The notes beneath the pieces are model-generated. The model saw only the letters and a program-made list of their open reading frames with translations. It had not been told where the DNA came from and did not search any database. From Candidatus Hermodarchaeota archaeon (GTDB lineage Archaea; Asgardarchaeota; Lokiarchaeia; Sigyniarchaeales; SOKP01), in assembly GCA_048885525.1 (NCBI GenBank), contig JBHLLP010000033.1:1-36069 (forward strand): DNA of 36,069 bases, written 5' to 3'. The translations under genes and the position numbers were made by a program. Below, in pieces: positions 4,379 through 26,281 of the stretch. Numbering within the stretch: the stretch's first letter is position 1; every line of letters begins with the position of its first letter.

Positions 4379-4420
4379 TAAATCCGATAATCTCAAATTA
4401 TATTATATTTTCAATGTAAA

Positions 4421-8276: not shown

Positions 8277-10175
8277 ATGGGTATCATAAATTATCCCCCA
8301 GAAAAGATTTATAGCCCTTCCAAGTTGAAGAGACCGGATTATGACCATATTATTCTCTGGATGTTGAATAATAATAATACATGCAAATGGGCGGATTTTC
8401 ATCGAGAACCAATTGAAATTCCTACGGGTACATTATCTAGACATTTAGACACATTAAAACGTAAGGGTTTTGTAGAAAATTTTACTAGAGGGCATTACAG
8501 AATTACTTCAGAGGGAAAAAAGAAATTTCATGAGTTATCATCATCTAAAAAGAAAAAACGCAGACTAAACTATCCTCCCGAAATAATATTAAGAAGTGGA
8601 AGGAATTACTCTCACTGGATTCTGTGGATGATTTATAATAATAATTACTGTAAAAGAACTGATTTCCTTAAAAAACCATTGTCTATAAATCAAACTTCAT
8701 TATCAAAAAATTTGAACTTATTAATTGAAAAGGGATTTGCATCAAAAGAAGATGGAAAATATCTAATTACCCAAGCAGGGAAATCTGAATACTCAAGGAT
8801 GTTAAAAAACTATGATTTGGATAGGCAAACTATTTTGGAAGAGGAAAGTAAACGAATTGAAGAGATTACTAAAAAAACACTTCAATTTTTTGAGATTTAT
8901 AATATTAAAGATGAAAATATACAATATAGGTTTCTAAATAATATACTAAGATTAGACTATGAAAAAGTAAAACCTATATTAAAAGATGAGGAAATCTTTC
9001 ATAAAATCATACTTTTCCTTTCGATTAATCATCCGGATCAATATCCAAACCTTATATCCTCTGAAGATTTTTCTAAAATTTATAAAATTAAGAAAACTAC
9101 GCTTGATTATTACATTGATGAGATCTCAGATGGTAAAATATATCCATTAAGATTTTTTAAGTTAAGGCAACCATCAGGCGAACAATATTACTTTCAATCA
9201 GATGGAACGCTAGAAAAAATGCTTCGAATAATCACCGAGAATAAAATCACTAAAGTTTCTTATTTAAATAAGCTTTTTTCTAAAAAAGTTATGTTAGATA
9301 TGGAATCCACAATAAATGATATTGCTAACAAGAGTTGTAAATTCTTATTTAATAAAAAATTGAAAGAATCTCTCAGAGAGTTTTTGCCGGAATATATTAA
9401 ATATTTAGCTTATAAAATTGAGACTAAGAAGAAATTAAAAGAGACTTATGATAAATTAGAGGGAGTTATTTGGCAGAATATAACAGATGCTTTTCAATCA
9501 AAAATCTCTGAAAATTTAGTTGATAAATATGAAGAACAAATAAAAGAGATTGAAAAAGAAATTGAAATAAAACCTAAGAATCTCAACTTATATTATTCGA
9601 AGATTAGAGTTCTGATTTACTTTAACCAATACAAAGATACAATAAATTTTTTAGAGGAAATGTTAGAAATTTTTCCTGAAAGTGAGAAGGATATTAAGGT
9701 ATTAAAAGCAGCCGTTCTTAGAAGAATGCAAAATGTTGAAGCAGGATTAGAAATCATTGAGTCTTTAATTGAAAAGTACCCTAAAGTCCATGATCTCCTT
9801 AGTTATAAAGCCTATTGGCTACAGTTTTTGGATAAAAAACAGCAAGCATTAGAAATAATTCAAAATCTTATAGAAATTGAACCTGAGGCGGGAATTTATT
9901 ATGACACATATGGTGAGATTTTAATGTATTTTGAAGATTATGAAGAAGCTGCTAAAAAATTTGTAAAGTCAATGGTTTTAGGAGCCCATGAATGGTATAT
10001 TTTTCAGACTTATATCAAATTAGGAATTTGTTATAAAGCTATTGGAAATATTGATTTAGCAGTTGAAAATCTCAATAAAGGAATAGAACTTACAGAGAAA
10101 AAAGTAAAAGATTCTGAAACAAAAGAAAAATGGCTTTCCATTGCTAATCTTTTTCTTTCAGAACTTAAGCCATAG
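8277..10175 (+). CDS. Tandem winged-HTH + C-terminal TPR putative transcription regulator (paralog 1)
   Basis: Two internal repeats NYPP...ILWM..NN...LS..L..L...G......Y.IT..G (wHTH), a possible third HTH (EDFSKIYKIKKTTLDYYIDEI), and C-terminal TPRs (YYDTYGEILM, TYIKLGICY). Confidence 0.8.
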   Translation: MGIINYPPEKIYSPSKLKRPDYDHIILWMLNNNNTCKWADFHREPIEIPTGTLSRHLDTLKRKGFVENFTRGHYRITSEGKKKFHELSSSKKKKRRLNYPPEIILRSGRNYSHWILWMIYNNNYCKRTDFLKKPLSINQTSLSKNLNLLIEKGFASKEDGKYLITQAGKSEYSRMLKNYDLDRQTILEEESKRIEEITKKTLQFFEIYNIKDENIQYRFLNNILRLDYEKVKPILKDEEIFHKIILFLSINHPDQYPNLISSEDFSKIYKIKKTTLDYYIDEISDGKIYPLRFFKLRQPSGEQYYFQSDGTLEKMLRIITENKITKVSYLNKLFSKKVMLDMESTINDIANKSCKFLFNKKLKESLREFLPEYIKYLAYKIETKKKLKETYDKLEGVIWQNITDAFQSKISENLVDKYEEQIKEIEKEIEIKPKNLNLYYSKIRVLIYFNQYKDTINFLEEMLEIFPESEKDIKVLKAAVLRRMQNVEAGLEIIESLIEKYPKVHDLLSYKAYWLQFLDKKQQALEIIQNLIEIEPEAGIYYDTYGEILMYFEDYEEAAKKFVKSMVLGAHEWYIFQTYIKLGICYKAIGNIDLAVENLNKGIELTEKKVKDSETKEKWLSIANLFLSELKP

Positions 10176-10292: not shown

Positions 10293-11807
10293 TTAATTTT
10301 TTCCTTTTATTTCTAAATCTATACTTTCTTCTTCCTTATATGATATTGTTGGCTTCAAAGAATCAATCGGAATGTCACACACCCAACATAGATTTTCCAA
10401 ATTGGTTAAAGCTCGAGCGCAGTTTTCGCAATAGATAGCCCCACATTTACATATATACGAGAAACCCAATACTTCACCTTTACATACCAAGCACATTTTC
10501 TTCTCTTTAGAAATTATTACTTCCTCTTCTTTAACTTGCGTCCTTAATATAATAGGCTTTAGATTCATTTTTTCAATTAATTCATCTATGCGAGCTAGTT
10601 CTAAACGTTCTATCATTGGTGCTCCCACTTCCTTAAGTTTATGCCATAAAACTGATTTTTCGTTTAAATCCTCTTTCTCTTTAGAAATTTGTTGGGCTAA
10701 TTGAATATGGTCAAATCTTTCTGCAATTTGCTGAGCTTGGGTAAAGAATCGTTTAGCTTCTTTAAAATTAAAAATTAGTAGACTTATTTTTCCTTGTAAG
10801 AGAAATGTCTCAGCAGCAAAATAATAGGATTTTTGATGTTCTGCAATTTTTAATAATTTTTTAATATATGGGTTTATTTCGTTTATTATATCTGAATCGT
10901 TAGTTATTCTTAATTCAATAAGAAGTAGGTCACAAATATTTATTATTGCTTTAATAACGAACTGGAAATTTTCTTTTTCCTCAGCAACTTGCTTAAATAA
11001 ATCTTCTGCTTCAATTCTATCTCTTGCTCGCAAACTCGTTTTCAATATTAAAGCTTTATAGTAATGATACAATAATTCAGAATAACTTTGTTTATCTTTT
11101 TCTATTAAATCACTCATCAGTTGGAAATAATATTTTGCATTAATAGTATCACCCTTCCCTAGATAACTATCAATCAGAAGTCCAAAAGAATTTAATAACC
11201 GAGGGGGGTAACCGACTTCTAGAGCACGTTTTGCATAATTTATAGCTTTATCATAATCTCCAAGGAAATGATAAGATTCCGCAAGATTTAATAGAGGTGA
11301 TGATTTTCGCTCTTTATCTTCACTATATTTTGCGAGCTCGAAAGCTTTTTCATTTAACATAAGGCTAAGTTGAGAATTTCCTGTAAGTCCTGCATTAATA
11401 GCTTTAATTCTGATCATATAAGATTCTTTTTCTCTAAGATCTGTCTTTGATACTCCTTTGAGATTTTCAAATATCTCCTCAGCTTTTTTAAGCGCAATAC
11501 TACTTTTACTTAAATCTCCCATCATTAAAAGTGAATATGCTTGAATTAACAAACCTTCAAAATATGAGGGTAAATCTCCTTGTTTTTGAGTTTCTTGTAA
11601 AAATTGGATAACAAGGCTAAGAGTTTTTGAATATTTTGATGACCTATATAATAACCTTAATTTCAATAACATAAAAGAGATTAAATTCTGATTAGATAAA
11701 TTACTCCTCTCCTCAATATCCAAAATAATTTGCAACGCTTCTTTAATTCTCCCTTCATATGTAAGCTGTTTTACTTTATTCAGCTCAATAATCTCAGAAT
11801 CAGACAT
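10293..11807 (-). CDS. TPR-repeat protein with C-terminal C4C4 RING-like zinc finger (paralog of 2190-3707)
   Basis: CLVC-x10-CKCGAIYCENC-x10-CWVC; shares the LRARDR..AE and CDLLLIELRITND blocks with the other TPR proteins. Confidence 0.8.
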   Translation of the reverse strand: MSDSEIIELNKVKQLTYEGRIKEALQIILDIEERSNLSNQNLISFMLLKLRLLYRSSKYSKTLSLVIQFLQETQKQGDLPSYFEGLLIQAYSLLMMGDLSKSSIALKKAEEIFENLKGVSKTDLREKESYMIRIKAINAGLTGNSQLSLMLNEKAFELAKYSEDKERKSSPLLNLAESYHFLGDYDKAINYAKRALEVGYPPRLLNSFGLLIDSYLGKGDTINAKYYFQLMSDLIEKDKQSYSELLYHYYKALILKTSLRARDRIEAEDLFKQVAEEKENFQFVIKAIINICDLLLIELRITNDSDIINEINPYIKKLLKIAEHQKSYYFAAETFLLQGKISLLIFNFKEAKRFFTQAQQIAERFDHIQLAQQISKEKEDLNEKSVLWHKLKEVGAPMIERLELARIDELIEKMNLKPIILRTQVKEEEVIISKEKKMCLVCKGEVLGFSYICKCGAIYCENCARALTNLENLCWVCDIPIDSLKPTISYKEEESIDLEIKGKN

Positions 11808-11926: not shown

Positions 11927-12481
11927 TTACAATTCATTGGAAAGAGCTTTAAACTTATTATATAATTTTTCGATAAGAGTATTAAAAGCTTTATAAACTC
12001 CTTCTCCTGTTTTTGCTGATGTTATATAATATCCGAGAAAATTTCGTTCTTTTATAAGTTCTTGAATTTTGGTTTTATCCAAATTGTCTTCCTCAATTAA
12101 ATCAACTTTATTGGCAAAAACAACAATAGGAATATCTCCACAGTATTGTTTTATATCATCATGCCAATTTGTTATATGTTCAAAGCTCCGTGTACCCAAA
12201 TCGTTTTCTTCGAGACTATATACGATAATAGCTGCTCTACTTTCTCTATAAAAAGAAGGACGTAAAAAAAGGAAATCATCTTGCCCTGCTATATCCCAAA
12301 ATAATAATCTAATCTTATCTCCACTAATTTCTGCAAAGAACTCAGAAAATTGGGCACCAATGGTCTTAATATATTCTTTTTGAAACGTGCCTTGCGTGAA
12401 CTTTTTAATCAAGGAAGTCTTTCCTACGCTACCATCCCCTATAACAATAACCTTAAATCCGAATTTTTGAGAATCATTCAT
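11927..12481 (-). CDS. Rab/Ras-like small GTPase
   Basis: GDGSVGKT, YIKTIG, WDIAGQ, NKVD, TSAK; close paralog of 3824-4378. Confidence 0.93.
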   Translation of the reverse strand: MNDSQKFGFKVIVIGDGSVGKTSLIKKFTQGTFQKEYIKTIGAQFSEFFAEISGDKIRLLFWDIAGQDDFLFLRPSFYRESRAAIIVYSLEENDLGTRSFEHITNWHDDIKQYCGDIPIVVFANKVDLIEEDNLDKTKIQELIKERNFLGYYITSAKTGEGVYKAFNTLIEKLYNKFKALSNEL

Positions 12482-12697: not shown

Positions 12698-12804
12698 TTT
12701 TTTTATCACCTCCATTTTGTATTGTTTTTTATTTTTTTCTTAATTTTAATATGGATAAGCTTCGTTATATAGTTTTTATTGCGGAACTTTTCGCGAAGTT
12801 CGAA
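12698..12804 (-). promoter_or_regulatory. Peptide-gene leader, BRE/TATA and palindromic operator GAACTT-N6-AAGTTC
   Basis: Minus strand AAAAACTATATAA; palindrome at 12784-12801; ungapped alignment to 23358-23464, and its last 44 nt align to 24273-24316. Confidence 0.75.
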
Positions 12805-12899
12805 TATGAGAAAAGGTTTATGAACAAAACCAAAATTAAGGTGAAAAAACAGATTAGGATTAGAAATTACATCAATTATAATTCTCAGTTATATTTCGT

Positions 12900-14855
12900 T
12901 TAATTTAACCGAATTGTTTTTTCAGCAAATATTTCATTTATCAATGGTTCTAGGGAAGGGATATCTTTTAATTGTACTAATCGGCTTGTTTGGTTGTATT
13001 CATTGAACGTCTTCCATATGGTTGCATCCTGTTTAACATTATCAATGAATTTTGCTACTCTTTGCTGCGCGAGATATGATTGTCCCTTGAATAAATAGCA
13101 TACAAGGAAAGGATGCAAAGAATTCATAATAATTGTATACTCCCCAAAATTCGCCCTGTTGAGACCCTCAGAGAACATTTGATCACTAAAGGAATTTATA
13201 GCTGTTAGAAAACCTCCAAAAAGATGATCCTCGAAAGCCCATTCTTCCGCAAAGGAATTAGAGAATAGGGGCCTACCACCCTCTGAAATAATCAATAGTA
13301 CGATAGGTTCCTCATCAGTAAGCTCAGGAACAATAATTTCTCGTTTTCGGATCATCCTTTCCATCTGTTCATTTGGACTTGCTAACTCCAAGCGTTCATA
13401 TAATGGTGCTTTAGATTCTTTTAATTTGTTCCACACATCTAATTGTTTAAGTAATTCATCATGCTCATTCGATATCTTTATTGCTAACCGATTGAGACCA
13501 TAATTATCTGCTATTTCTTGAGCCTTAATTAATAACTGCCGAGCTTTTTTTATATCCAACGTAATTAAGGATAATCTTGCTTGGAGCAAATATGTTTCAG
13601 CTAATAGAGAATAAGAACGCGAATTTTTAACGGTGTCAAATAATTGAGAAATATAAACTTGCAATTCATCCAGTATTTCAGGTTCGTTAGTTGCATATAA
13701 CTCAAATAGGAGCAAATCGCACAAGTTCAGGAGAGCCATTTTTAAACTTTCAAAGTCAGAGATTTCTTCTTCAATCAACTGTTTTAACATCTCTTCAGCT
13801 TTCCCACGATTAACAGCGCGGGGGCTAGATTTCAGGTATATAGCTCTATCAATGTTATATAGTATATTATAATAATTGGATTGATTCTTTTCTTGATCAG
13901 AAATTTGCTTCATTCGATTTAACCATCGCTGTGCCTGTTCAAGATCGTTCATATCAAGAGCTAATTGAAACAAACTATCAGTAAAGGCAAATTTCTGAAT
14001 AATTGTACCATATTCTTCTGCAATAGTTATACTTTTTTTCAAAAACTTTAAGGCATTGTCGTAATCGCCTTTTTCATGGTATGTCATTCCAATGCTATTA
14101 TATATTGGTGATAATAATTCTAATTTGTTTTCTTTCTCTGTAAATGATAGGATTTGTTCGTAATAACTAAGAGCCTTATCTAATTCACCTTTGAGCGTAT
14201 AAATCATTCCAAATTGCAAATTGCAATAGTGAAAAATATCTATTAAGTCAAGTTTATTGCAATGATTTTTACATGATTTAATATATTCTAAAGCACAGTT
14301 TAAGTTTCCAATTTTCCAGGAAATCACTCCAAGTTGGTAATGCATAAGAGCAATATCTACTTTTAGATTGAGATCTTCTAGGATTACTAGAGATTCCTCC
14401 CTAAATTCTTTAGCTTTTTCCAGATCTCCTTTCTGCTCATGATAAGCGCCTTTGTTCCATAATATATATGCTTTTCTTTTTTTGAGTTCTGTGGATAATT
14501 CTTGAGGGAGTATCTTCAGTAGATCTTCACTCTTTTTGATAAAGCCAGCTGCTTCATTTGTCTTATAAGACCAATTTGATATAGCTCCCATAAGAATATA
14601 GACATCAAGCAATAAAATGGAATTTTCAAGCTTTTGGCTTTCACGATAAGCTTTTTCGGTATATTTTGTACATTCATTTCTATCTTGAAAATAAAAGGCG
14701 ACAAAACCTTTTAGACAATAATAAGCTATCCGCTCACGATAAGAGAGATCTTTTTTGTTTTTAAAATCATTGAGTATTTGAAGAGCTTCTTCGATTTTAC
14801 CTGCTTCAATAAGCTTTTCTGCTTGACCTAATTCCTTATGTATTAAATGAGCCAT
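12900..14855 (-). CDS. TPR-longin protein, array copy 5
   Basis: TPR repeats plus longin-like tail LLIISEGGRPLFS...HLFGGFLTAINSFSDQMF. Confidence 0.82.
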   Translation of the reverse strand: MAHLIHKELGQAEKLIEAGKIEEALQILNDFKNKKDLSYRERIAYYCLKGFVAFYFQDRNECTKYTEKAYRESQKLENSILLLDVYILMGAISNWSYKTNEAAGFIKKSEDLLKILPQELSTELKKRKAYILWNKGAYHEQKGDLEKAKEFREESLVILEDLNLKVDIALMHYQLGVISWKIGNLNCALEYIKSCKNHCNKLDLIDIFHYCNLQFGMIYTLKGELDKALSYYEQILSFTEKENKLELLSPIYNSIGMTYHEKGDYDNALKFLKKSITIAEEYGTIIQKFAFTDSLFQLALDMNDLEQAQRWLNRMKQISDQEKNQSNYYNILYNIDRAIYLKSSPRAVNRGKAEEMLKQLIEEEISDFESLKMALLNLCDLLLFELYATNEPEILDELQVYISQLFDTVKNSRSYSLLAETYLLQARLSLITLDIKKARQLLIKAQEIADNYGLNRLAIKISNEHDELLKQLDVWNKLKESKAPLYERLELASPNEQMERMIRKREIIVPELTDEEPIVLLIISEGGRPLFSNSFAEEWAFEDHLFGGFLTAINSFSDQMFSEGLNRANFGEYTIIMNSLHPFLVCYLFKGQSYLAQQRVAKFIDNVKQDATIWKTFNEYNQTSRLVQLKDIPSLEPLINEIFAEKTIRLN

Positions 14856-14971
14856 AATTTTCTCAGATATTATAGGTTTGAATAGCTTGGATTATAACTT
14901 TTCAGATACAAGTTATATAGTAAGAAAATTACCATTTTAAATGTAATTACAATACCAATAAAAAATCGAAT

Positions 14972-16924
14972 TTACGCAATCAGGGGGACACTTTTATCTA
15001 TAAAGATTTTAGTTATCAATGGTTCAAGGGAAGGAACATCTTTTAATTGAACTAATCGGCTTGTTTTATTATAATCATTAAACATCTTCCATATGTTAGC
15101 ATCCTCTTTAACATGATCAATGAATTTTGCCACTCTTTGCTGTGCAAGATATGATTGACCCTTAAATAAATAACATACGAGGAATGGTTCGAGAGGATTC
15201 ATAATAATAGTATACTCTCCAAAATTAGCCCTATTGAGCCCCTCAGAGAACATCTGATCACTAAAGGAATTTATAGCGGTTAAAAAACCTCCAAAAAGAT
15301 GATCTTCGAAAGCCCATTCTTCTGCAAATGATTTAGAGAATAGAGGCCTTCCACCCTCCGAAATAATTAAAAGTACTATAGGATCTTCATCAGTAAGCTC
15401 AGGAACAACTATTTCTCGTTTTCGGATCATTTTCTCCATCTGTTCATTAAGTTGTGCTAACTTCAAGCGTTCAGCTAAAGATGCTTCTGATTCTTTTAAT
15501 TTGTCCCACACATCTAATTGTTTAAGTAATTCATCGTGCTCATTCGAAATTTTCATGGCTATTAAATTAAGACCGTATTTTTCGGCAACTTCCTGAGCTT
15601 GTGTCAAAAACCGCCGAGCTTCGTTCGTATCAAAAGTTATTAATGCTACTTTGGCTTGTAATAGGTAGGTTTCAGCGAGATACCAAAACGAGTTTGTTTT
15701 CTCAGTTAATTCTAATAAACGATTTAGATTGGTTTTAATCTCTTCTAGCACTTCAGCATCGTTAGTTATGCGTAATTCAACCAATAATAAATCACAAAGC
15801 TCTATTAATGCTTCAATTTTTGAAATAACTCCTTCTTCTTCAATAATTTCTCTCAATATTTCTTCTGCTTTGACCCGGTTTTTAGCTCTTGTGCTTGTTT
15901 TCAGTAGGATGGCGCTACTCAAACGAAAACATGAATTAATCCATTTACTTTCCTCTTGTTCGTTGAGCTGCTTTAAGCGGTTAAAGTGTTTTTGAGCTAA
16001 TTCAAGATCGCCCATTTCGACTGCTGCACCAATCAAATTAGTAAGAGTTGTAGATGTGTGTAAATTAATCCCGAGTTCCTCTCTTATTGTTAGACCTCGC
16101 TCTAGATGCCCTAAAGCACGAATAAAGTCACCCTTTCCTCTATAGATATTCCCAATTTGGGTATGTGCAGCTGCGATCATCTGTTTATTATTAATCTTTT
16201 CGTGTAATTTTAAACCTTGCTCTGCATATATGAGACTTCGATCTAATTCACCTTTATTCAAATGAACAAGCATTAACCATAGCAAGTTTTGAGCTATAAA
16301 ATACTTGCTATTACTTTCCTCTGCTAATAATAAACTTCGCTTTAGATATTTAATGGCATGATTCAATTCACCTTTTTGTCCAAAAAGAATATGAGCGATC
16401 CAATAAAGGGATTCAGCAATCATAACTTTATTGTCTAATTTCTCTCCCAATTCTAAACTCTGTTCTAAGAACTTTAGTTGATTATCCATTATTTGAATGA
16501 ATATACCTTTAACTAAAAAAATGTGAGCTTCTCGTTTCATGATGTCTTCTGGTAATTCTCGGGTAAATTTTTTTAATAATTCTTCGGCTTGGTTAATTAC
16601 ATTAATAGCTTCCTCTTCTCTATCAAGAAATTTTAAAGCCTTCGCGCTGAGTATTAAGGCGTCAACTGATTGGAGATTTTTTCCCAACTCTAAACTCTCT
16701 TTATATGTTTGATCTGCTATTTTAAGCATTTCCTCAAATTTCCATTGCCAATATAAAAGGTTGCACTTGAGGAGCCGAAATGATACTTTATCCTGAAGCA
16801 TGAGGCCCTTCATTTGCTCGAAACTGTCAATGAGTTGGAGGGCTTCATCATACTTGCCTTCATCAATGAGTTTTTTTGCTTGAACAAGCTCCTTAGATTC
16901 ATCACTGGACATATTTTCATCCAT
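14972..16924 (-). CDS. TPR-longin protein, array copy 4
   Basis: Same architecture; ELRITND subtype. Confidence 0.82.
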   Translation of the reverse strand: MDENMSSDESKELVQAKKLIDEGKYDEALQLIDSFEQMKGLMLQDKVSFRLLKCNLLYWQWKFEEMLKIADQTYKESLELGKNLQSVDALILSAKALKFLDREEEAINVINQAEELLKKFTRELPEDIMKREAHIFLVKGIFIQIMDNQLKFLEQSLELGEKLDNKVMIAESLYWIAHILFGQKGELNHAIKYLKRSLLLAEESNSKYFIAQNLLWLMLVHLNKGELDRSLIYAEQGLKLHEKINNKQMIAAAHTQIGNIYRGKGDFIRALGHLERGLTIREELGINLHTSTTLTNLIGAAVEMGDLELAQKHFNRLKQLNEQEESKWINSCFRLSSAILLKTSTRAKNRVKAEEILREIIEEEGVISKIEALIELCDLLLVELRITNDAEVLEEIKTNLNRLLELTEKTNSFWYLAETYLLQAKVALITFDTNEARRFLTQAQEVAEKYGLNLIAMKISNEHDELLKQLDVWDKLKESEASLAERLKLAQLNEQMEKMIRKREIVVPELTDEDPIVLLIISEGGRPLFSKSFAEEWAFEDHLFGGFLTAINSFSDQMFSEGLNRANFGEYTIIMNPLEPFLVCYLFKGQSYLAQQRVAKFIDHVKEDANIWKMFNDYNKTSRLVQLKDVPSLEPLITKIFIDKSVPLIA

Positions 16925-17023
16925 ATTTTTAGAAAAAATTGGATTCTAATTTTCAATATACAAGTTATATATTAAGTTATTTATCATTTTAAATGTACTT
17001 AAATTATCAATAAAAATTCGAGT

Positions 17024-19000
17024 CTACGCAATCAGGGGGACGCTTTTATCTATAAAGATTTCATTTATCAAGGGTTTGAGGGAAGGAATATCCTTTAATT
17101 GTACCAATCGGCTTGCTTGATTAAATTTATTAAAAATATTCCAAATTTCTGCATCCTCTTTAACCTTATCTATGAATTGTGCTACTCTTTGCTGCGCGAG
17201 ATATGATTGTCCCTTAAATAAATAACATACGAGGAAGGGATGGAGAGAATTCATAATAATGGTATACTCCCCAAAATTAGCCCTGTTTAGCCCCTCAGAG
17301 AACATCTGATCACTAAAAGAATTGATAGCAGTTAAAAATCCACCAAAAAGATGATCCTCAAAAGCCCATTCCTCAGCAAACGATTCAGAGAATACAGGTC
17401 TTCCACCCTCGGAGATAATCAGAAGAACGATAGGTTCTTCATCAGTAAGCTCAGGAACATCTATTTCTTGTTTTCGGATCATTCTTTCCATCTGTTCATT
17501 TAGATGTGCTAGCTTCATGCGTTCTGACAAAGATGATTCTGATTCTTTAATTTTGTTCCATTCATCTAATCGCTTAAGTAATTCATCGTGTTCATTCGAA
17601 ATTTTGATTGCTAATCGATTAAGACCATATTTTTCTGCTATTTCTTGAGCCTTAGTTAGAAAATATCGAGCTTTTATCAAATCCAACGTTAATAACGCCA
17701 ATTTAGCTTTTAAAAAGTATGTTTCAGCTAATAAAAAATAGGAATTCATCCGTTCAGATTCGTCTAATAAACGAGCGATAATAGATTCGATCTCTTCTAA
17801 AACTTCTAAATCATTGGTTATACGTAATTCGACTAATAATAAATCACATAATTCTAGCATTGGGGCCGCCGAATAAATATTTCCTTCGTCTAAAAGCTCT
17901 TTTAAGATTTCTTCTGCTTGGACTCGATTTTTAGCTCGAGGGCTGGCCTTCAAAATCAAAGCTTTATAATAAAGATGCATCATATTAACATATTCGTCCC
18001 TCAATTGATTGTTTAAACGCTCAATTTGATCAAGATGTTTCTGTGCTGACTCAAGATCGCCCTTATCAATTAAAATTTGAATTAAAACCCCGCGGGCTTT
18101 AGCACTATCTTTTAACATTTCCAACTCAGAATATAATGCTAATCCTCGCTCAGCGTAGTCTAACGCGCGATTATATTCTCCTTTCATTCTATACGTATTT
18201 CCTAGAGAGCAGCACCCTACTGCTATTTCGGATTTATTATTGAGCTCCTTGAAAATCGCTAAACTTTGTTCATAATATTTAATACTCAGATCAAGTTCAC
18301 CCCTAAGGAAATACACTGCATAGATATAGGTTAAACCAAATGCAATTATATATTTATTTTTAAGCTCTTTTTTCTTAACTAGAGCCAGAAATCGCTCGAT
18401 ATACTTTAAAGCATCATTTGTTTCACCCTTTATACGACCTAAGTTATAAATTATTTCCATAAGTGATATAGCGATTTCCTCTTTATCCCCAACCTCTTCT
18501 TGCAATGCTAAACTCTGATAAAGTTGATCTAAAACAAAATTTACATCCCCATTTCGATTAAAGTATTTATTATTAGAAAATGCTTTAACATAAATTATTC
18601 GTGCCTTTCTTTTCTTGTAATCTTTTGGTAATTCTTTAGTTAGGGTTTTCAGTAGTTTTTCTGCCTGCTTAATTGTATCAGAAACTTCCTCTTTTCTATA
18701 AAGAAATACTAAACCTAAAGCCTTAAAACATAAAGCATCAATAGACAGAAGATGTTTACCTAATACTAAACTCTCTCCATACGTTTGTTCAGTAAATTTG
18801 ACAAGATCTTCATATTGCCCTTGTTGGAATAAAAGCTCGCATTTGAGGAGATGACATGACACAATCTCATGAAGATTGCGTTCACCTGTTTCCTCAAATT
18901 TATTCATTAATTGGATCGCTTTTTCGCTCTTTCCCTTGTCTATGAGTTGTTTTACAAGAATTAATTCCTTCGGTTCTAAATAAGTAATATGATTTTCCAT
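17024..19000 (-). CDS. TPR-longin protein, array copy 3
   Basis: Same architecture; ELRITND subtype. Confidence 0.82.
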   Translation of the reverse strand: MENHITYLEPKELILVKQLIDKGKSEKAIQLMNKFEETGERNLHEIVSCHLLKCELLFQQGQYEDLVKFTEQTYGESLVLGKHLLSIDALCFKALGLVFLYRKEEVSDTIKQAEKLLKTLTKELPKDYKKRKARIIYVKAFSNNKYFNRNGDVNFVLDQLYQSLALQEEVGDKEEIAISLMEIIYNLGRIKGETNDALKYIERFLALVKKKELKNKYIIAFGLTYIYAVYFLRGELDLSIKYYEQSLAIFKELNNKSEIAVGCCSLGNTYRMKGEYNRALDYAERGLALYSELEMLKDSAKARGVLIQILIDKGDLESAQKHLDQIERLNNQLRDEYVNMMHLYYKALILKASPRAKNRVQAEEILKELLDEGNIYSAAPMLELCDLLLVELRITNDLEVLEEIESIIARLLDESERMNSYFLLAETYFLKAKLALLTLDLIKARYFLTKAQEIAEKYGLNRLAIKISNEHDELLKRLDEWNKIKESESSLSERMKLAHLNEQMERMIRKQEIDVPELTDEEPIVLLIISEGGRPVFSESFAEEWAFEDHLFGGFLTAINSFSDQMFSEGLNRANFGEYTIIMNSLHPFLVCYLFKGQSYLAQQRVAQFIDKVKEDAEIWNIFNKFNQASRLVQLKDIPSLKPLINEIFIDKSVPLIA

Positions 19001-19099
19001 AGATTATCAGTTTAAGAATATGGATTATAACGGTTTGAATACAATTATATTATTAAGAAAATTGAAATTTTAAATGTAATTAAACTCTCAACTAAAAAA

Positions 19100-21052
19100 C
19101 TAAGCAATAAGGGGGACGCTTTTATCAATAAAAATCTCATTTATCAATGGTTCAAGAGAAGGAATATCTTTTAATTGTACTAATCGGCTTGCTAGATTAA
19201 AATCATTAAATGTCTTCCATATGACAGCATCCTCTTTAACCTTATCAATGAATTTTGCTACTCTTTGCTGTGCGAGATATGATTGTCCCTTAAATAAATA
19301 ACATGCGAGGAATGGTTCGAGAGAATTCATAATAATGGTATATTCACCAAAATTCGCCCTGTTGAGCCCCTCAGAGAACATCTCACCACTAAAGGAATTG
19401 ATGGCAGTTAAAAAACCACCAAAAAGATGATCTTCGAACGCCCATTCTTCCGCAAAGGATTTAGAGAATACGGGTCTACCACCCTGTGAAATAATCAATA
19501 ATACGATAGGTTCCTCATCAGTAAGCTCAGGAACAATAATTTCTCGTTTTCGGATCATCCTTTCCATCTGTTCATTTGGACTTGCTAACTCCAAGCGTTC
19601 AGATAATGGTGCTTTAGATTCTTTTAATTTGTTCCACACATCTAATTGTTTAAGTAATTCATCGTGCTCATTTGATATCTTTATTGCTAACCGATTGAGA
19701 CCATATTTATCTGCTATTTCCTGAGCCTTAATTAACAACTGCCGAGCTTTTTTCATATCCAAGGTAATTAAGGATAATCTTGCTTGGAGTAAATATGTTT
19801 CAGCTAATAGGGAATAAGAACGGGAGTTTTTGACGGTGTCAAACAATTGAGAAATATAAACTTGCAATTCATCTAGTATTTCTGGTTGCCCAGTCGCATG
19901 TAATTCAAATAAGAGCAAATCACATAAGTTAAGGAGAGCTATTTTTAATAATTCATAATCGGAAATTCCTTCTTCAATTAATTGTTTCAACATCTCTTCA
20001 GCCTTACCCCGATTGAGAGCTCGAGGGCTATATTTCTGGAAAATTGCTCTATCTACGTTATATACTATATTAAGTCCTCTTGAATTTTCTCGATCAGCGA
20101 TTTGCTTAATTCGATTCAAGTATTTTTGTGCTTTTTCAAGATCGTTCATATCAAGAGCTAAGTGAAACAAACTATCAGATCTGTAAATTGTATGATACTC
20201 TTCCTTAATAGTTATACTTTTTTCCAGATTTTCTAATGCTCGGCTGAAATCTCCTTTTTCTTGATAAATCATTCCAATATTATTGTACATCGTTGTAATT
20301 AATACTAAATCATTTTCTTTTTCTGCAAATGCTAGTGCTTTTTCATAATAACTAAGAGCTCGATCTAGTTCACCCTTCATACTGTAAATAATTCCAAATT
20401 GATTATAACAACTGTGAATAAGGTTTATTAAGTTGAGATTATTAGCAAGAATTTTACAGGATTCAATAATTTCTAGAGCATGGTTTAAGTCTCCAATAAG
20501 CCAAAAAACCCGCCCAAGTTGAAAAAGAGTCAGAGCAATGTCCGCTTTATGATTGAGTTTTTCTCGTATTACTAGAGATTCCTCCGCACATTCTTTTGCT
20601 TTTTCCAATTCTCCTTTCAGCTGGCATTTAAAGCCTTTTAGCCACAATAGAAAAGCTTTTTTTTTTGTCAGTTCTGTGGATAATTCTTGAGGGAGTATCT
20701 TTAGTATGTCTTCACACTTTTTGATAAATTCATATGCTTCATTCGTCTTATAATGCCAGAGTAAATTATTTGCCATTTGAAGATAGACATCAAGCAATAG
20801 AAGGGAATTTTCAAGCTTTTGACTTTCACGATAAGCCTTTTCGGCATATTTTGCTATTTCATTTCTATCAAAAAAATAATTGGCGAGGCTACTTTTAAGT
20901 GTATAATAATAAATTCGCTCAAAGTAAGGAAGATCTTTTTTCTCTCCAAAAGTATTCACTAATTGGAGTGCATTTTCGATTTTACCTTCATTAATAAGCT
21001 TTTCTGCCTGAATAAGCTCCTTAGGTTCTGAATAAACCATATGTTTTTCCAT
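19100..21052 (-). CDS. TPR-longin protein, array copy 2
   Basis: Same architecture; first 91 aa differ from copy 1 at only 3 positions. Confidence 0.82.
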   Translation of the reverse strand: MEKHMVYSEPKELIQAEKLINEGKIENALQLVNTFGEKKDLPYFERIYYYTLKSSLANYFFDRNEIAKYAEKAYRESQKLENSLLLLDVYLQMANNLLWHYKTNEAYEFIKKCEDILKILPQELSTELTKKKAFLLWLKGFKCQLKGELEKAKECAEESLVIREKLNHKADIALTLFQLGRVFWLIGDLNHALEIIESCKILANNLNLINLIHSCYNQFGIIYSMKGELDRALSYYEKALAFAEKENDLVLITTMYNNIGMIYQEKGDFSRALENLEKSITIKEEYHTIYRSDSLFHLALDMNDLEKAQKYLNRIKQIADRENSRGLNIVYNVDRAIFQKYSPRALNRGKAEEMLKQLIEEGISDYELLKIALLNLCDLLLFELHATGQPEILDELQVYISQLFDTVKNSRSYSLLAETYLLQARLSLITLDMKKARQLLIKAQEIADKYGLNRLAIKISNEHDELLKQLDVWNKLKESKAPLSERLELASPNEQMERMIRKREIIVPELTDEEPIVLLIISQGGRPVFSKSFAEEWAFEDHLFGGFLTAINSFSGEMFSEGLNRANFGEYTIIMNSLEPFLACYLFKGQSYLAQQRVAKFIDKVKEDAVIWKTFNDFNLASRLVQLKDIPSLEPLINEIFIDKSVPLIA

Positions 21053-21154
21053 AAATTATCGGTTAAAAATTTGGATTATAACTTTTCAGATACAAAGAAT
21101 ATATTAAGAAAATTACCATTTTAAATGTAATTTTCTAACAATCTAAATTCGAAC

Positions 21155-23122
21155 CTACGCAATTAGGGGGATACTTTTATCTACAAAGATTTTTGTTATT
21201 AATGGTTCGAGCGAAGGGATATCTTCTAATTGTACTAATCGGCTTGTTTGGTTGTATTCATTAAACGTCTTCCATATGATTGCATCCTCTTTAACATTCT
21301 CAATGAACTTTGCTACTCTTTGCTGTGCGAGATATGATTGTCCCTTAAATAAATAACACACAAGGAAAGGATGGAGCGAATTCATTATGATAGTATACTC
21401 CCCAAAATTAGCTCTGTTGAGCCCCTCAGAGAACATCTCATCGCTAAAGGAATTTATCGCGGTTAAAAAACCACTAAAAAGATGATCTTCGAACGCCCAT
21501 TCTTCTGCAAATGATTCAGAGAATATAGGCCTTCCACCTTCTGAAATAATTAATAATACGATAGGCTCCTCATCCGTAAGCTCAGGAACAATAATTTCTC
21601 GTTTTCGGATCATCCTTTCCATCTGTTCATTTGGGCGCGCTAACTTCATACGTTCAGATAAAGATGCTTTAGATTCTTTTAATTTGTTCCATACATCTAA
21701 TTGTTTAAGTAAATCATCGTGCTCATTCGATATTTTTATTGCTAAACGATTAAGGCCATATCTATCTGCTATTTCCTGAGCCTTAATTAACAACTGCCGA
21801 GTTTTTTTCATATCCAACGTGATTAATGATAATCTCGCTTGGAGTAAATATGTTTCAGCTAGTAAAGAATAAGAACGAGAACTTTTAACAGTGTTAAATA
21901 ATTGGGAAATATAAATTTGTAGTTCATCTAATACTTCTGGATCATTAGAAGCATGTAATTCATAAAGGAGCAAATCGCATAAGTTAAGGAGAGCAATTTT
22001 TGAAGATTCGTAGTCAGAAATTCCCTCTTCAATTAATTGTTTTAAGATCTCTTCAGCTTTACCCCGATTAAGAGCTCGAGAACTAGTTTTCAGATAAATG
22101 GCTCTATCAATGCTATATGGTAGATTATAATAATTTGTTTGATACTTCTCTTGATCTGCAATTTGCCTCATTTGATTTAAGTATCGCTGGGCTTGTTCAA
22201 GATCGTTCATATCAATAGTTAAATGAAATATTGTATCCGAAACAGTAAATATTTCATAATTCGTACCATATTCTTGTTTAATAGCTATACTTTTTTCTAA
22301 ATTTTCTAATGCACAGTTAAAGTCTCCTTTTTCTTGATAGATCATTCCAATATTGTTATAAATACTTGAAATAAAGGTCATATTATTTTCTTTTTTTGCA
22401 AATGGTAATGCTTTTTCAAAATAACTAAGAGCCCGATCTAATTCACCTTTCATAGAGTAAATACACCCAATTTGATTATAACAACGGTGAAGTAGATGTT
22501 TTAAGTTAAGATTATTAGCAAGAGTTTTTGATGATTCAGAATATTCTAAGGCATTTAAGTCTCCAGTTATCCATGAAAACCATCCCAGTTGATAAAGAAT
22601 TAAAGCTATATCTGTTTTAATATTAAGTTCTTCTAGTAATACAAGAGTTTCTTTCCAAAATTCTATAGCTCTTTCCAGTTCTCCTGTTTGTCGAAGGTCC
22701 TCGCCTTTTAACCATAATATATATGCCTTTCTTCTAGTGAGTTCTGTAGATAATTCTTGAGGGAGTTTCTTCAATAGGTTTTCACTATTTTTAATAAATT
22801 CAAATGCTTTCTTTCTCTTAGAATGTAAGAATAAATTAATTGCCATTAGAAGATAAACATCTAGCAAGAGTAGGGAATTTTCAAGCTTTTGACTTTCATG
22901 ATAAGCCTTTTCGGCATATTTTGCCATTTCATTTCTATCAAAAAAATAATTGGCGAGTCTACTTTTAAGTGTATAATAATATATTCGCTCAAAGTAAGGA
23001 AGATCTTTTTTCTCTCCAAAAGTATTCACTAATTGGAGTGCATTTTCGATTTTACCTTCATTAATAAGTTTTTCTGCCTGAATAAGCTCCTTAGGTTCTG
23101 AATAAACCATATGTTTTTCCAT
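21155..23122 (-). CDS. TPR-longin protein, array copy 1
   Basis: Same architecture. Confidence 0.82.
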   Translation of the reverse strand: MEKHMVYSEPKELIQAEKLINEGKIENALQLVNTFGEKKDLPYFERIYYYTLKSRLANYFFDRNEMAKYAEKAYHESQKLENSLLLLDVYLLMAINLFLHSKRKKAFEFIKNSENLLKKLPQELSTELTRRKAYILWLKGEDLRQTGELERAIEFWKETLVLLEELNIKTDIALILYQLGWFSWITGDLNALEYSESSKTLANNLNLKHLLHRCYNQIGCIYSMKGELDRALSYFEKALPFAKKENNMTFISSIYNNIGMIYQEKGDFNCALENLEKSIAIKQEYGTNYEIFTVSDTIFHLTIDMNDLEQAQRYLNQMRQIADQEKYQTNYYNLPYSIDRAIYLKTSSRALNRGKAEEILKQLIEEGISDYESSKIALLNLCDLLLYELHASNDPEVLDELQIYISQLFNTVKSSRSYSLLAETYLLQARLSLITLDMKKTRQLLIKAQEIADRYGLNRLAIKISNEHDDLLKQLDVWNKLKESKASLSERMKLARPNEQMERMIRKREIIVPELTDEEPIVLLIISEGGRPIFSESFAEEWAFEDHLFSGFLTAINSFSDEMFSEGLNRANFGEYTIIMNSLHPFLVCYLFKGQSYLAQQRVAKFIENVKEDAIIWKTFNEYNQTSRLVQLEDIPSLEPLITKIFVDKSIPLIA

Positions 23123-23282
23123 AAATTATCGGTTTAAATACTTGGATTATAACTTTTCAGATACAAGTTATATAATAAGATATTTGCCATTTTAAATATA
23201 ATTAAAACGTGATGTATTTTAAGATATTAAAATTCAGAGAGAAAAAGAATAAAAAATAAAAAAATAAAAAAAATAAGTTATA

Positions 23283-23357: not shown

Positions 23358-23464
23358 TTTTTTTATCACTTTTTTTTGTTTTATTATTTTGTTTTTTTCT
23401 TAATTTTAATATTGAAATACTTCGTTATATAGTTTTTACCGCAGAACTCTATTCGAAGTTCGAA
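23358..23464 (-). promoter_or_regulatory. Peptide-gene leader, BRE/TATA and operator, copy 2
   Basis: GAACTC-tattcg-AAGTTC at 23444-23461; colinear with 12698-12804. Confidence 0.75.
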
Positions 23465-23614
23465 CATTTATCAAGATAAGAAAACTAGTAAAAAAATTTA
23501 AGAATTAAACTCTCAAAAAAGAATAAAAGACTGTTTAAAAAAGAATAAGATAAAAATTAAAAAAAGAATAAGAAAAGAAACTATTTATACATAAATAGTT
23601 GGGATGTTCATAAA

Positions 23615-24214
23615 TTAATTTAAAAACTTTGATTTCTGGATAAATAAAATATTGGATTTAACGTTAGATTCTTTCAATTTCTTCGATATCTCAACAAAAG
23701 TATTTTCTTCACCAAAATGAACAAAAGTTATTCCTTTATCTTCGCGACCTTTTAAAATCTCTAGAATTCTTTTAGTAATAGCATCCGTTCGTACACGATT
23801 ATTGATGTAATGCTTTAAATCTTTTAATTCATCTGAGTAATCATAAATTAAATAACCTAGCTCTTTAGCAGTTGGAGAATTTTTATCTTCTAATGAATTA
23901 TATGTAGCTTTTAACTCAGAAAGTCTCTCCTGAAGTTCAGTTATTTGACTTGAGAAGTAATCCTTTACATAATGAGGTGATTCAACTGTGAAATAAGGGA
24001 TCTCAAATTGTTTCAACACTTCTGCCAAATAAGTATTATTGAAGTCTCTTAGATTTATACTACCCAAATCAATTGTTGCGAAATGTATAGGAAGATTCCT
24101 TATCTTTTCAACAACATCCTCAATATCTTCTTGTGTAACTTCACCATTTAAATCTCTTATTAAATATCCAGAGAAATCTATATCAGCCAATAATTCAAAC
24201 ATTATACTTGCCAT
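23615..24214 (-). CDS. Hypothetical alpha/beta protein, possibly degenerate TraB/PrgY/GumN (TIKI/EreA-like) fold
   Basis: Start moved to ATG 24214 (MASIMF; SD-like AGTGAA), since the 24277 ATG lies only just 3' of the TATA box, probably upstream of the transcription start. EDIEDVVEKIRNLPIHFATIDL, YLAEVLKQFEIPYFTVES and RTDAITKRILEIL...TFVHFGEEN...LKE resemble TraB/GumN blocks by eye. CDS is confident, family is tentative. Confidence 0.6.
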   Translation of the reverse strand: MASIMFELLADIDFSGYLIRDLNGEVTQEDIEDVVEKIRNLPIHFATIDLGSINLRDFNNTYLAEVLKQFEIPYFTVESPHYVKDYFSSQITELQERLSELKATYNSLEDKNSPTAKELGYLIYDYSDELKDLKHYINNRVRTDAITKRILEILKGREDKGITFVHFGEENTFVEISKKLKESNVKSNILFIQKSKFLN

Positions 24215-24272
24215 TTTATTTTCACTTTTTTTTATTTTGTTTGTTTTTTTTATAATTATATTATAAGATAAG

Positions 24273-24340
24273 TTCATTATATAGTTTTAAATATGAAACT
24301 TCATACGAAGTTCGAACTTAAAAAAAAGTTTATATAGAAT
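24273..24340. promoter_or_regulatory. Back-to-back promoters with operator copy 3 (AAACTT-N6-AAGTTC, plus perfect AAGTTCGAACTT)
   Basis: 44-nt ungapped alignment to the two peptide promoters. Minus-strand TATA at ~24278-24283 and plus-strand AAAAAAGTTTATATA at ~24322-24336 ahead of the regulator. Confidence 0.75.
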
Positions 24341-24385: not shown

Positions 24386-26281
24386 ATGAGTATTGTAAAT
24401 TATCCTCCTAAAGAGATTTATAAAGCACCTAAATATGGAAAGAAGAATTTTGAGCATATAATTCTTTGGATGCTAGCAAATAATGATGAATGTCAATGGT
24501 CAGACTTTACACAGGATCCTTTAGGATTTAGTACTTCAACTCTATCTAAATATTTCAATTTATTAAAGAGTAGGGGATATGTTGATAATTATTCTCGAGG
24601 TTATTATAAGATAACACTTGAAGGGGAAAAGAGATTTAATGATTTATCTAGAACCCGTGGTGAGAAAAGAAGATTAAGCTATCCTCCTGAAGTAATTTTA
24701 AGGAGGAGAAATTATGATGATTGGATTCTATGGATGGTTTATAATAATACATTTTTGAAATGGTCTGATTTTCTTGCTGAACCTCTTAGCATTAACCAAT
24801 CATCCCTATCAAAGAATATGAATCTTTTGATAAATAAGGAGTATGTACTAAAAGAGAATAAAGAGTACCGAATTACCCGTTCAGGCAAAATAGAGTATTC
24901 AAGAATGCTACAGAATTATGACTTAGATAGACAATCAATTTTAGATGAGGAGAGTAAGAGAATTGAAGAGATTACCAAAAAAACCATAGAATTCTTTGAC
25001 ACTTACGATATTAGGGATGAAGATATTCAATTTAGGTATCTCAATAACGTTATAAGGTTAGATTATGCCAGAGTTAAAGCTATGTTAACAGAAGAGGAGG
25101 ATTTTGAAAAAATCTTACTTTTTCTTTCAATGAATCATCCAAACCAATATCCAAACTATATTTCTATGGAAGATTTTTCAAAGACCTATAGAATAAAGGA
25201 GTCAAAATTGGAGTATTATATTGATGAGATCGTTGAGAATCAGATATATCCAATAAAATTTTTCAAATTAAAGCTTCCTCCGAATGAAGTATATTACTTC
25301 CAGGAAAATGAAAGAGTAGAGATTATGCTTCGGGCTATAACAGAAGATCATATAACTAAATTTACTTACTTAAGTAAGTTATTTTCAAGATCATTAGATT
25401 TACGTACTACCATTGATAATATATTAGATGATATTTGTGGGTTATTATTTAATGAATGTTTTAAAGAGTCTTTAAGTGAGTTTCTACATGATTATATTAG
25501 TTACTTAGCATATAAGATTGAAGCGAAAGAAGAATTAAAAGAAACATTAGATAAACTAGAAGGAATAATCTGGCAGGATATGATGGAATTATTTCAATCA
25601 CTGAGTACTGGGGATTTGAAAGACCAATTTGAAGAACAGATTAAAGAGATAGATAAGGAAATCAAATCTGATCCGGATAATATCGATTTATACAATTCAA
25701 AAATCTCAATTTTACTCTACTATGAACAATTAGAAGATGTATTGAAATTATTAAATGAAATGCTAGAGAAATTCGAAGAGAATGAAATTGGTATTAAGAT
25801 GAAAAAAGCATCAGTTCTTAGAAGAATGCGAGATGTACAGAGTGGTTTAGATATTATCAATGAATTAATCAAGAAATATCCTGAAAATAATGATCTACTT
25901 AATTTTAAAGTCTATTGGTTACAATATTTAAATAGAAGAGAAGAAGCATTGAAAATAATTGAAGATCTCATTGCTAACGTTCCTGATAATGGAACGTATC
26001 ATGATACATATGGAGAACTCCTAATGTATTATGAAGAATATAAACAAGCTACAGAAAGATTCTTAAAAGCAATTGAAATAGCTGGTGATGAGTGGTATAT
26101 TAATCAAACATATATTAAGCTAGGAATCTGCTATAAAGAACTTAAAAACTTCGATTTAGCGCTTCAAAATCTTAAAAAAGGTAAAGAGTTAACAAACAAA
26201 AGCTCAGGAGATGCAGAGACTAGACAAAAATGGCTTACAATCGCTGACCTTTTTCTATTAGAAATAGAACAAATGCTTTAA
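24386..26281 (+). CDS. Tandem winged-HTH + TPR putative transcription regulator (paralog 2)
   Basis: Full-length paralog of 8277-10175 (shared PLSINQ.SLSKN, NYDLDRQ.IL.EESKRIEEITKKT, TYIKLGICYK). Confidence 0.8.
   Translation: MSIVNYPPKEIYKAPKYGKKNFEHIILWMLANNDECQWSDFTQDPLGFSTSTLSKYFNLLKSRGYVDNYSRGYYKITLEGEKRFNDLSRTRGEKRRLSYPPEVILRRRNYDDWILWMVYNNTFLKWSDFLAEPLSINQSSLSKNMNLLINKEYVLKENKEYRITRSGKIEYSRMLQNYDLDRQSILDEESKRIEEITKKTIEFFDTYDIRDEDIQFRYLNNVIRLDYARVKAMLTEEEDFEKILLFLSMNHPNQYPNYISMEDFSKTYRIKESKLEYYIDEIVENQIYPIKFFKLKLPPNEVYYFQENERVEIMLRAITEDHITKFTYLSKLFSRSLDLRTTIDNILDDICGLLFNECFKESLSEFLHDYISYLAYKIEAKEELKETLDKLEGIIWQDMMELFQSLSTGDLKDQFEEQIKEIDKEIKSDPDNIDLYNSKISILLYYEQLEDVLKLLNEMLEKFEENEIGIKMKKASVLRRMRDVQSGLDIINELIKKYPENNDLLNFKVYWLQYLNRREEALKIIEDLIANVPDNGTYHDTYGELLMYYEEYKQATERFLKAIEIAGDEWYINQTYIKLGICYKELKNFDLALQNLKKGKELTNKSSGDAETRQKWLTIADLFLLEIEQML

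Follow-up and report, generated by a model that had tools for sequence, protein, structure and literature searches.

Why would an archaeon keep five genes side by side whose products end in much the same domain and begin with strongly divergent tetratricopeptide repeat (TPR) regions? The question is raised by contig JBHLLP010000033.1 of the Asgard archaeon Candidatus Hermodarchaeota archaeon (assembly GCA_048885525.1), of which we analyzed positions 1 to 36,069 of the forward strand (hereafter the window; G+C content ~30%). An earlier note on this DNA had likened the array to a receptor repertoire, in which variable TPR sensors and a constant longin effector feed many specificities into one output. 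The array itself is real—five intact minus-strand open reading frames (ORFs), each of 650-658 amino acids (aa), together span 12900-23122, all of them open throughout as had been stated, and their DNA forms a periodic repeat of 2.05-2.08 kb whose tail-coding parts are 82-89% identical, far above chance. The variable heads and the constant tail of that proposal stand, and the tail is predicted by models and structure comparison to be a longin domain; however, the longin is more likely a docking domain than an effector, and the shared output is probably a Rab-like small GTPase that is encoded at the array end and had not been mentioned. On balance, and with somewhat better than even confidence, we see in this locus a system in which many ligand specificities converge on one Rab-like GTPase switch.

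The constant part of the five proteins is longer than the ~170 residues previously described as nearly identical: it covers ~200 aa from about residue 450, comprises a helical linker followed by a globular domain and, in our alignment, is 84-90% identical among the five copies, the corresponding head identity being 34-76%. All five heads match the Pfam profile PF13424 (TPR_12; 43-82 bits, cut-off 30.1), while PF17874 (TPR_MalT; 46-70 bits, cut-off 45) matches residues ~140-475; the heads further show the TPR signature residues G8, Y11, G15 and A20 in eleven hairpins with a 40-residue register. The variable strings to which attention had been drawn are present in copies A, D and E, namely WNKGAYHEQKG/WLKGFKCQLKG/WLKGEDLRQTG near residue 133 and HYCNLQFGM/HSCYNQFGI/HRCYNQIGC near residue 209. 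Sequence searches with the tail were not decisive, as only PF19036 (Fuz_longin_1) was reached in Pfam, at a sub-threshold E of 0.02-0.07 in the same region of three members, and a profile search of the PDB returned no match. Its fold was therefore taken from structure prediction with AlphaFold2 (AF2), using a 60-sequence alignment for the tail (predicted local distance difference test, pLDDT, 76.7) and a 63-sequence alignment for full-length copy A (pLDDT 89.2; predicted template modeling score, pTM, 0.86). In the full-length model, residues 7-451 form eleven helical hairpins and residues 455-503 the linker helices, after which comes a β-β-α-β-β-β-α-α domain, for which the AF2 models place strands at 516-524 and 529-534, a helix at 539-562, strands at 567-570, 573-580 and 583-590, and helices at 593-609 and 611-622; the N-terminal helix typical of roadblock domains is absent from the tail model. 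With this predicted model as the query, an exhaustive structure comparison by VIA-align is headed by longin domains at ranks 1-30 (Z 9.2-12.3; ~115-134 residues at 2.6-4.0 Å for most). Synbindin and AP-3 sigma lead the list (both Z 12.3), followed by Fuzzy (11.6), BLOC-3 (10.6), MON1/CCZ1 (9.3-9.7) and SRX (8.6-9.6), whereas roadblock and MglB domains come lower (Z 7.8-8.5), and Foldseek agrees with AP-2 sigma as its best match (E 7e-4). On these models, the array tail is predicted with good confidence to adopt the longin fold.

In the full-length model a single longin domain follows the all-helical head, which rules out membership of the tri-longin RabGEFs, the guanine nucleotide exchange factors (GEFs) Mon1-Ccz1, Fuzzy-Inturned and HPS1-HPS4 that have three tandem longins per subunit. 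Neither Pfam nor the full-length model reveals an NTPase domain in the array proteins, whose heads consist of helical repeats throughout. They are probably members of a large Asgard (Promethearchaeota) family of modular sensors or adaptors, each built from a TPR solenoid of ~11 hairpins, a conserved helical linker and a C-terminal longin domain. An exhaustive search for this family yields 897 representative clusters, and the named relatives of the array proteins all belong to Promethearchaeota metagenome-assembled genomes.

The GTPase encoded at the array's 3' end has all of its G1-G5 motifs intact: GDGxVGKTS, the switch-I Thr, WDIAGQ with the catalytic Gln, NKVD and SAK are invariant in 16 orthologs, none of which has a Cys within the C-terminal 20 residues and hence a Rab-type prenylation motif. 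It represents a distinct, dedicated subfamily comprising 8 of the ~53 small GTPases of this genome. In a survey of 45 loci from related genomes, the order of n TPR-longin genes followed by a same-strand GTPase gene recurs in 15 arrays from 12 genomes, and a gene coding for a winged helix-turn-helix (wHTH) protein with TPRs often lies upstream of such arrays. Between arrays, the identity of the tails goes with that of the partner GTPases (r=0.73; 0/5000 permutations), and tail and head identity are nearly uncoupled (r=0.15). The longin domain itself correlates with the GTPase at r=0.68 (partial 0.69 given the linker; 0/5000 permutations) and the head at r=0.40; the linker, which is common to the RING proteins discussed below, is less supported as the GTPase-matching element (r=0.36 vs 0.68). 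Thus, as far as sequence identities can tell, the type of longin follows the type of the Rab-like GTPase gene that closes the array—since related arrays are not independent, this covariation is evidence of co-inheritance and not proof of a physical fit. Prediction of a complex between tail and GTPase gave “weak support”, with a score of 0.55 against 0.00 for the best of three controls, runs sharing at least 50% of their contacts and a partner pLDDT of 80-81. In the calibration of the tool, 58 of 80 solved complexes but only 2 of 110 mismatches passed this mark; passes at scores of up to 0.60 are unreliable, however, as they comprise just 7 of the 80 and both passing mismatches; moreover, the score may reflect likeness, because longin-GTPase complexes have already been solved. 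Two relatives, G008 and G006, have single-gene arrays beside the orthologous GTPase, so that the five-copy expansion is lineage-specific among the genomes searched.

The constancy of the tail has a history of its own. The five tails have a synonymous divergence (dS) of 0.36-0.86 and a nonsynonymous divergence (dN) of 0.05-0.09, giving dN/dS ratios of 0.09-0.17; as dS is substantial while dN/dS is ~0.1, the tail is kept by strong purifying selection, and recent gene conversion alone is ruled out as the cause by the same values. Between copies with unrelated heads, tail dS is nevertheless far below the saturated head dS, and in sliding windows the proportion of synonymous differences (pS) drops from 0.6-1.0 to 0.3-0.5 at about residue 450. 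The head tree resolves three lineages—A/D/E; B with a gene of genome G002; and C with genes of G001, G002 and contig C7—and the tail tree unites the five tails in one clade together with tails of genes bearing yet another head lineage. Approximately unbiased (AU) tests reject an A-E clade on the head data (p-AU 1e-94; also p 3e-114) and the head-defined clades on the tail data (p 6e-4, 1e-44 and 4e-6). The histories of head and tail are separate, and they part at a breakpoint that falls at the linker or where linker and longin meet. According to the trees, the five heads did not diversify in place; they derive from three old lineages, which recombination or conversion close to the linker has joined to a single type of tail. 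Short tracts almost devoid of synonymous change, at residues 1-76 of D/E (pS 0.04-0.05) and ~449-528 of A/D (pS 0-0.08), show that conversion is still going on in the array.

Turning to the heads, most close pairs have a mean dN/dS of 0.24-0.36, and pairs within the B-type clade one of 0.44-0.96, as against ~0.1 in the tails and in leucyl-tRNA synthetase (LeuRS). In known TPR-ligand complexes, positions 2, 5, 6, 9, 12 and 13 face the groove. Our structural classes were fixed before the results were seen, in a canonical TPR register anchored on the Pfam TPR_1 match and on the conserved G8, Y11, G15 and A20 of five strictly 40-residue repeats. Nonsynonymous divergence (pN) is higher at the groove positions than at the convex helix-B positions in every comparison. 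Within the B-type clade, groove dN amounts to 1.6-2.9 times the regional dS (Fisher p 3e-4 to 0.12; four sequences, non-independent pairs) and to 2-3.5 times the convex dN (p ≤7e-4 in 5 of 6 pairs, which share four sequences). When the register is shifted as a control, the groove signal of each of four independent clades peaks at shift 0 (ratios 1.5-2.7), with the ratio falling below 1 at shifts of one or two and returning at three, as a single helical face predicts, and helix A is 1.5-2.7 times as variable as helix B. Hence, in each of these four clades the heads vary chiefly along that face of TPR helix A which is predicted to line the groove. This accords with the concave groove that the earlier note had expected: the variation is neither uniform nor, in the predicted register, convex, head dN/dS is raised and the tail is a predicted longin, so that none of the contrary outcomes which it had named was seen. 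As for the origin of the variation, drift of a pseudogene is ruled out as the reason for a dN/dS near 1 in the B head, whose reading frame survived in 0 of 20,000 neutral simulations that imposed the 173 substitutions observed. Hypermutation by a diversity-generating retroelement was likewise rejected, there being no reverse transcriptase among the window ORFs and the repeats representing whole-gene paralogy plus promoter elements.

At least one head lineage has also traveled. LeuRS dS between this genome and G009, G021 and G002 is 0.80-1.75, and B-type head dS between those same genomes is only 0.13-0.44. In G002, the B-type gene stands alone between unrelated genes; the gene with ~40-80 bp on each side (2.08 kb, the array period) is 87% identical to copy B, while the flanking regions match this genome at just 69% and at other places, which rules out contamination of the bin or a near-identical strain as the reason for the similarity. 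These distances argue that at least the B-type head moved between species as a promoter-plus-gene unit of ~2.07 kb. Genomes of the genus carry between 0 and 27 copies, and across the phylum the tail is patchily distributed, being present in 76 of the 201 genomes sampled.

We propose that each TPR head binds a different ligand in its groove and that the five longin domains dock on the single co-encoded Rab-like GTPase, either as a platform for its regulation or as its effectors, whereby several inputs could reach one GTPase switch. The tail would then be constant because every copy must fit the same GTPase, with occasional within-array conversion lending help. The TPR-RING protein built on the same scaffold might belong to the same circuit, as might the wHTH-TPR regulator, through a palindromic site common to its own, the array and the GTPase promoters.

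Several observations weigh against this proposal. Stable inheritance of longin and GTPase as one block, instead of a physical fit, could account for the covariation, and binding of the longin to the GTPase is inferred from gene order, co-inheritance and a weak complex score. Of the 83 full-length family genes sampled, only 29 have the GTPase downstream, and half of this genome's dedicated GTPases (4 of 8) are without a family member in their vicinity; frequent as it is, the pairing is therefore not obligatory. A gap of 418 bp precedes the GTPase, and the promoters are separate, so that array and GTPase need not share a transcript. On the input side, the expectation of raised head dN/dS was borne out by values of 0.24-0.96 overall and by groove dN above dS in the B-type clade, but values above 1 are confined to that clade, with its four sequences and non-independent pairs, and groove dN/dS in A/D/E is 0.36-0.66. 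Further, the groove was assigned from the canonical TPR register and not from model coordinates, and the helix-B classes fit the 40-residue repeat less well.

The scaffold also carries other outputs. The linker motif and head recur in TPR-RING proteins, and this genome codes for ~21 scaffold proteins, of which 13 have longin tails, 6 RING tails and 2 other tails. In sister genomes, the closest relatives of the A/D/E heads (66-71% identity) belong to ~794-aa TPR-linker-longin-TIR proteins, often in tandem, in which a longin of only ~45% identity is followed by a TIR domain; examples are L071:179-2563 (P0159), L075:1501-3885 and the three tandem genes of L036 (G011:C156). The TIR of P0159 matches PF13676 (E 3e-17) and the ThsB/SAVED-TIR models, and the TIR domains of these relatives align to SARM1/TIR-1 with the catalytic Glu kept (VRKEI). 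The TIR-fused genes often form tandem arrays with no neighboring GTPase. None of the six window copies has a TIR in Pfam searches, and the single TIR of this genome is found in an unrelated 1643-aa ORF outside the window.

These relatives bring up a reading that is compatible with the proposed convergence on a GTPase, namely that the family is a repertoire of immune or conflict receptors in which the TPR groove recognizes foreign, for example viral, proteins and the output is a TIR NADase, a RING ligase or a longin-coupled GTPase. We hold this possibility only tentatively. It gains from the TIR-fused relatives with their catalytic Glu and from the groove-focused diversifying change, interspecies exchange, fluctuating copy number, patchy distribution and tandem expansion, all of them typical of conflict genes. 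It loses from the lack of a TIR in the window copies, the genome's one TIR being unrelated, and from a PADLOC search of ten window proteins, which found only a generic TPR model and weak wHTH matches and made no defense-system assignment. The surroundings are housekeeping, with no mobile-element, restriction or CRISPR genes among the window genes, and the array proteins lack the STAND NTPase by which known repeat-sensor immune proteins are driven; we know of no viral ligand for the family. As between a physiological and a conflict role, the relatives fused to a TIR, the diversified groove, the exchange between species and the changes in copy number would speak for a conflict or immune-like one, and the absence of any known defense gene in PADLOC together with the housekeeping neighbors counsels caution. 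The broader scheme, an Asgard surveillance of non-self or stress in which cassette-exchanged, groove-diversifying TPR receptors act on a Rab-like GTPase via the longin, or through TIR or RING modules, is likewise doubtful at present, though conceivable.

Rather less likely is that the longin is a self-association module that di- or oligomerizes the TPR proteins—and would switch on the TIR in the fused relatives—the GTPase being merely a co-regulated neighbor or upstream actor. Longin and roadblock domains do commonly dimerize (Tran et al. 2024, PMC10933270), the TIR-fused versions of L036 have no adjoining GTPase, and about two thirds of the family genes are without one downstream; against this, it is the longin and not the linker or head that follows the GTPase type, and the complex prediction exceeds all controls, though weakly. 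That the genes are ordinary tandem paralogs, their heads drifting under relaxed constraint and their tail identity a functionless by-product of conversion, is very improbable: conversion tracts exist and mean head dN/dS is below 1 in most pairs, but tail dS is high at a dN/dS of ~0.1, head variation is specific to one face, neutral simulation never keeps the B head open, and all frames are intact, each copy with its own promoter element.

How does the proposed longin-GTPase pair compare with known systems? TRAPP C1/C4-Rab1, Mon1-Ccz1-Rab7, Fuzzy-Inturned, BLOC-3, SRX-SRβ and MglB-MglA resemble the array tail in predicted fold and topology, and the array is encoded beside a Rab-like GTPase whose type the longin follows. 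The array proteins differ in bearing a single longin at the end of a long TPR solenoid, as opposed to the tri-longin heterodimers of the RabGEFs and to MglB, a small subunit that stands alone. Unlike in those partnerships, several paralogs with different heads share one GTPase, on which the longin might act as a GEF, a GTPase-activating protein (GAP) or an effector. In Asgard genomes, Rab-, Arf- and Rag-like GTPases number in the dozens, and there are over 100 longin or roadblock proteins. The array draws on these building blocks of its own phylum, for which a repertoire of roadblock/longin domains and small GTPases (PMC10933270; 10.1101/2020.10.19.343400) and extensive shuffling of longin domains have been described (Tran et al. 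2024, PMC10933270; Liu et al. 2020, 10.1101/2020.10.19.343400). In strain MK-D1, GTPase genes generally lie outside operons with roadblock/longin genes, which makes the matching of regulators to GTPases difficult (Tran et al. 2024, PMC10933270); in contrast, a specific GTPase subfamily is repeatedly encoded directly after TPR-longin arrays. The family thus offers a specific pair, one longin tail type and one GTPase subfamily, where such matching is hard. Neither the TPR-longin architecture, nor its arrays, nor their pattern of evolution are described in Tran et al. 2024 (PMC10933270), Liu et al. 2020 (10.1101/2020.10.19.343400), Kaur et al. 2020 (PMC7159879) or a 2026 structural-clustering preprint.

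A second set of parallels concerns the sensors. With the Avs/NLR-like STAND-TPR proteins, the TPR systems of Kaur et al. 2020 (PMC7159879), SARM1 and Thoeris ThsB, the family has in common a variable repeat-solenoid sensor, swappable effectors (TIR and RING), tandem expansion, lateral spread and diversifying change. Unlike such repeat-sensor conflict proteins, it has no STAND, MoxR or DO-GTPase/GAP1 core, and the switch would be a eukaryote-like Rab-type GTPase reached via the longin; neither longin nor roadblock is mentioned in Kaur et al. 2020 (PMC7159879). The TPR_MalT match of the heads recalls the MalT-type TPR (SUPR) sensors, and the neighboring wHTH-TPR proteins, like the RRNPP-type HTH-TPR regulators, join a DNA-binding domain to TPRs; unlike the MalT and RRNPP regulators, the array proteins have neither an ATPase nor a DNA-binding domain, and a gene for a signaling peptide did not come to light, though no search was aimed at one. 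The input side bears the evolutionary marks of a ligand-binding groove, and the head-tail mosaic, promoter-plus-gene exchange and TIR/RING tails speak of a modular sensor-output design. Should the sensors detect foreign proteins, this would be an Asgard defense or recognition system using a GTPase switch, which we did not find described in the literature searched; should they detect host cues, it would be a rare archaeal case of several inputs onto one small GTPase. Were the surveillance scheme true, it could be a prokaryotic forerunner of the wiring of eukaryotic receptors to small-GTPase switches and TIR/RING immune outputs.

The coordinates of the array and the associated features are collected in Table 1. 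A Pfam scan of the ORFs shows that the window holds two copies of one module, composed of a plus-strand double-winged-helix-TPR gene, small unknown genes, TPR-tail genes (five or one), a Ras/Rab-family small GTPase and a TPR-RING protein, the remaining genes being of the housekeeping kind (LeuRS, thiolases, aminotransferase). The sixth paralog, the GTPase, the TPR-RING genes and the wHTH-TPR regulators had been overlooked in the earlier description of the locus.

Table 1. Genes and putative regulatory elements of the two modules in the window
Feature	Position	Strand	Remarks
Copy A (P0001, 651 aa)	12900..14855	-	TPR head residues 7-451, helical linker 455-503, predicted longin domain 516-644; linker and longin encoded at ~12900-13508
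Copy B (P0002, 650 aa)	14972..16924	-	Separate head lineage common to G002, G021 and G009
Copy C (P0003, 658 aa)	17024..19000	-	Third head lineage, with G0_C7, G001 and G002_b
Copy D (P0004, 650 aa)	19100..21052	-	A/D/E head lineage
Copy E (P0005, 655 aa)	21155..23122	-	A/D/E head lineage; first gene of the array
Copy F (P0006, 652 aa)	4478..6436	-	Divergent sixth paralog, 37% identity overall, other tail type; heads the second module
Rab/Ras-family small GTPase (184 aa)	11927..12481	-	Directly downstream of the array; Pfam Ras E 1e-42
Second Rab-like GTPase (190 aa)	3824..4396	-	Downstream of copy F; 70% identical to the GTPase at 11927..12481
TPR-linker-RING protein (504 aa)	10293..11807	-	Downstream of the first GTPase; matches to zf-C3HC4_3 and TPR, and to linker and head hidden Markov models (HMMs)
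Second TPR-linker-RING protein (505 aa)	2190..3707	-	Pfam and linker HMM matches
Double winged-helix and TPR protein (631 aa)	24386..26281	+	Divergently transcribed; HTH_34 and TPR matches; candidate regulator of the array
Second wHTH-TPR protein (632 aa)	8277..10175	+	Candidate regulator of the second module
Soluble 220-aa protein, coiled-coil-like stretches	23615..24277	-	Upstream of the five-copy array; no Pfam match, no family found
Upstream element of copy A	14886..14952	-	TATA-like TTTAAAAT and invariant GTTATAATCCA; repeat family D14
Equivalent upstream elements of other array copies	16938-17004, 19019-19085, 21070-21136, 23141-23207	-	That of copy F near 6451
Palindrome GAACTT-N6-AAGTTC	12784..12801	-	Upstream of the GTPase
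Palindrome GAACTT-N6-AAGTTC, second copy	23444..23461	-	Upstream of copy E
Palindrome GAACTT-N6-AAGTTC, third copy	24296..24313	-	1 mismatch; divergent promoter region between the 220-aa gene and the wHTH-TPR gene

Among the small genes, that at 6752-7444 on the minus strand codes for a protein of ~230 aa with a signal-peptide-like N-terminus and no Pfam match; its site is equivalent to that of the gene at 23615-24277, but the two proteins are unrelated. At 7681-8073, also on the minus strand, lies a gene for a 130-aa small membrane protein with four predicted transmembrane helices and no known family, which is found inside or beside TPR-longin arrays in the relatives L016, L019, L029, L033 and L035 as well. 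A SET-domain protein (195 aa; 1232-1819, plus strand) adjoins the locus and has an equally placed ortholog in G008 (L016:4151-4627). In G021 (L015, G021:C161), the ortholog of the second wHTH-TPR gene has the F-type tail and GTPase as its immediate neighbors; as the orthologs of the two modules are differently arranged there, the window locus has been rearranged repeatedly within the genus. An Rfam search of the window returned no RNA family.

Each array copy bears its own upstream element, so that the exchanged or duplicated unit comprises promoter and gene; an exact 14-mer of this element occurs five times in the genome, four of them in the window. A family-specific AAAGTTATAATCCA follows the TTTAAAAT box 20-30 nt before the start codon on the minus strand at 6451, 14888, 19021, 21072 and 23143; its conservation extends to the sites ahead of the divergent copy F and of family genes on other contigs (G000 C63:11582 and C27:8725). 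The GAACTT-N6-AAGTTC palindrome has three matches where 0.02 are expected, and the first two lie inside a 120-nt repeat (12688-12807 and 23348-23467; 80% identity) that brackets the whole array and contains a TATA-like AAAAACTATATAA. From its placement, this palindrome looks like a shared operator for the neighboring wHTH-TPR regulator. The second module has another palindrome, ATCACC...GGTGAT, at 7477-7494 and 8109-8125, upstream of the gene for the secreted 230-aa protein and of the second wHTH-TPR gene, and, given this difference, each regulator paralog may have its own site.

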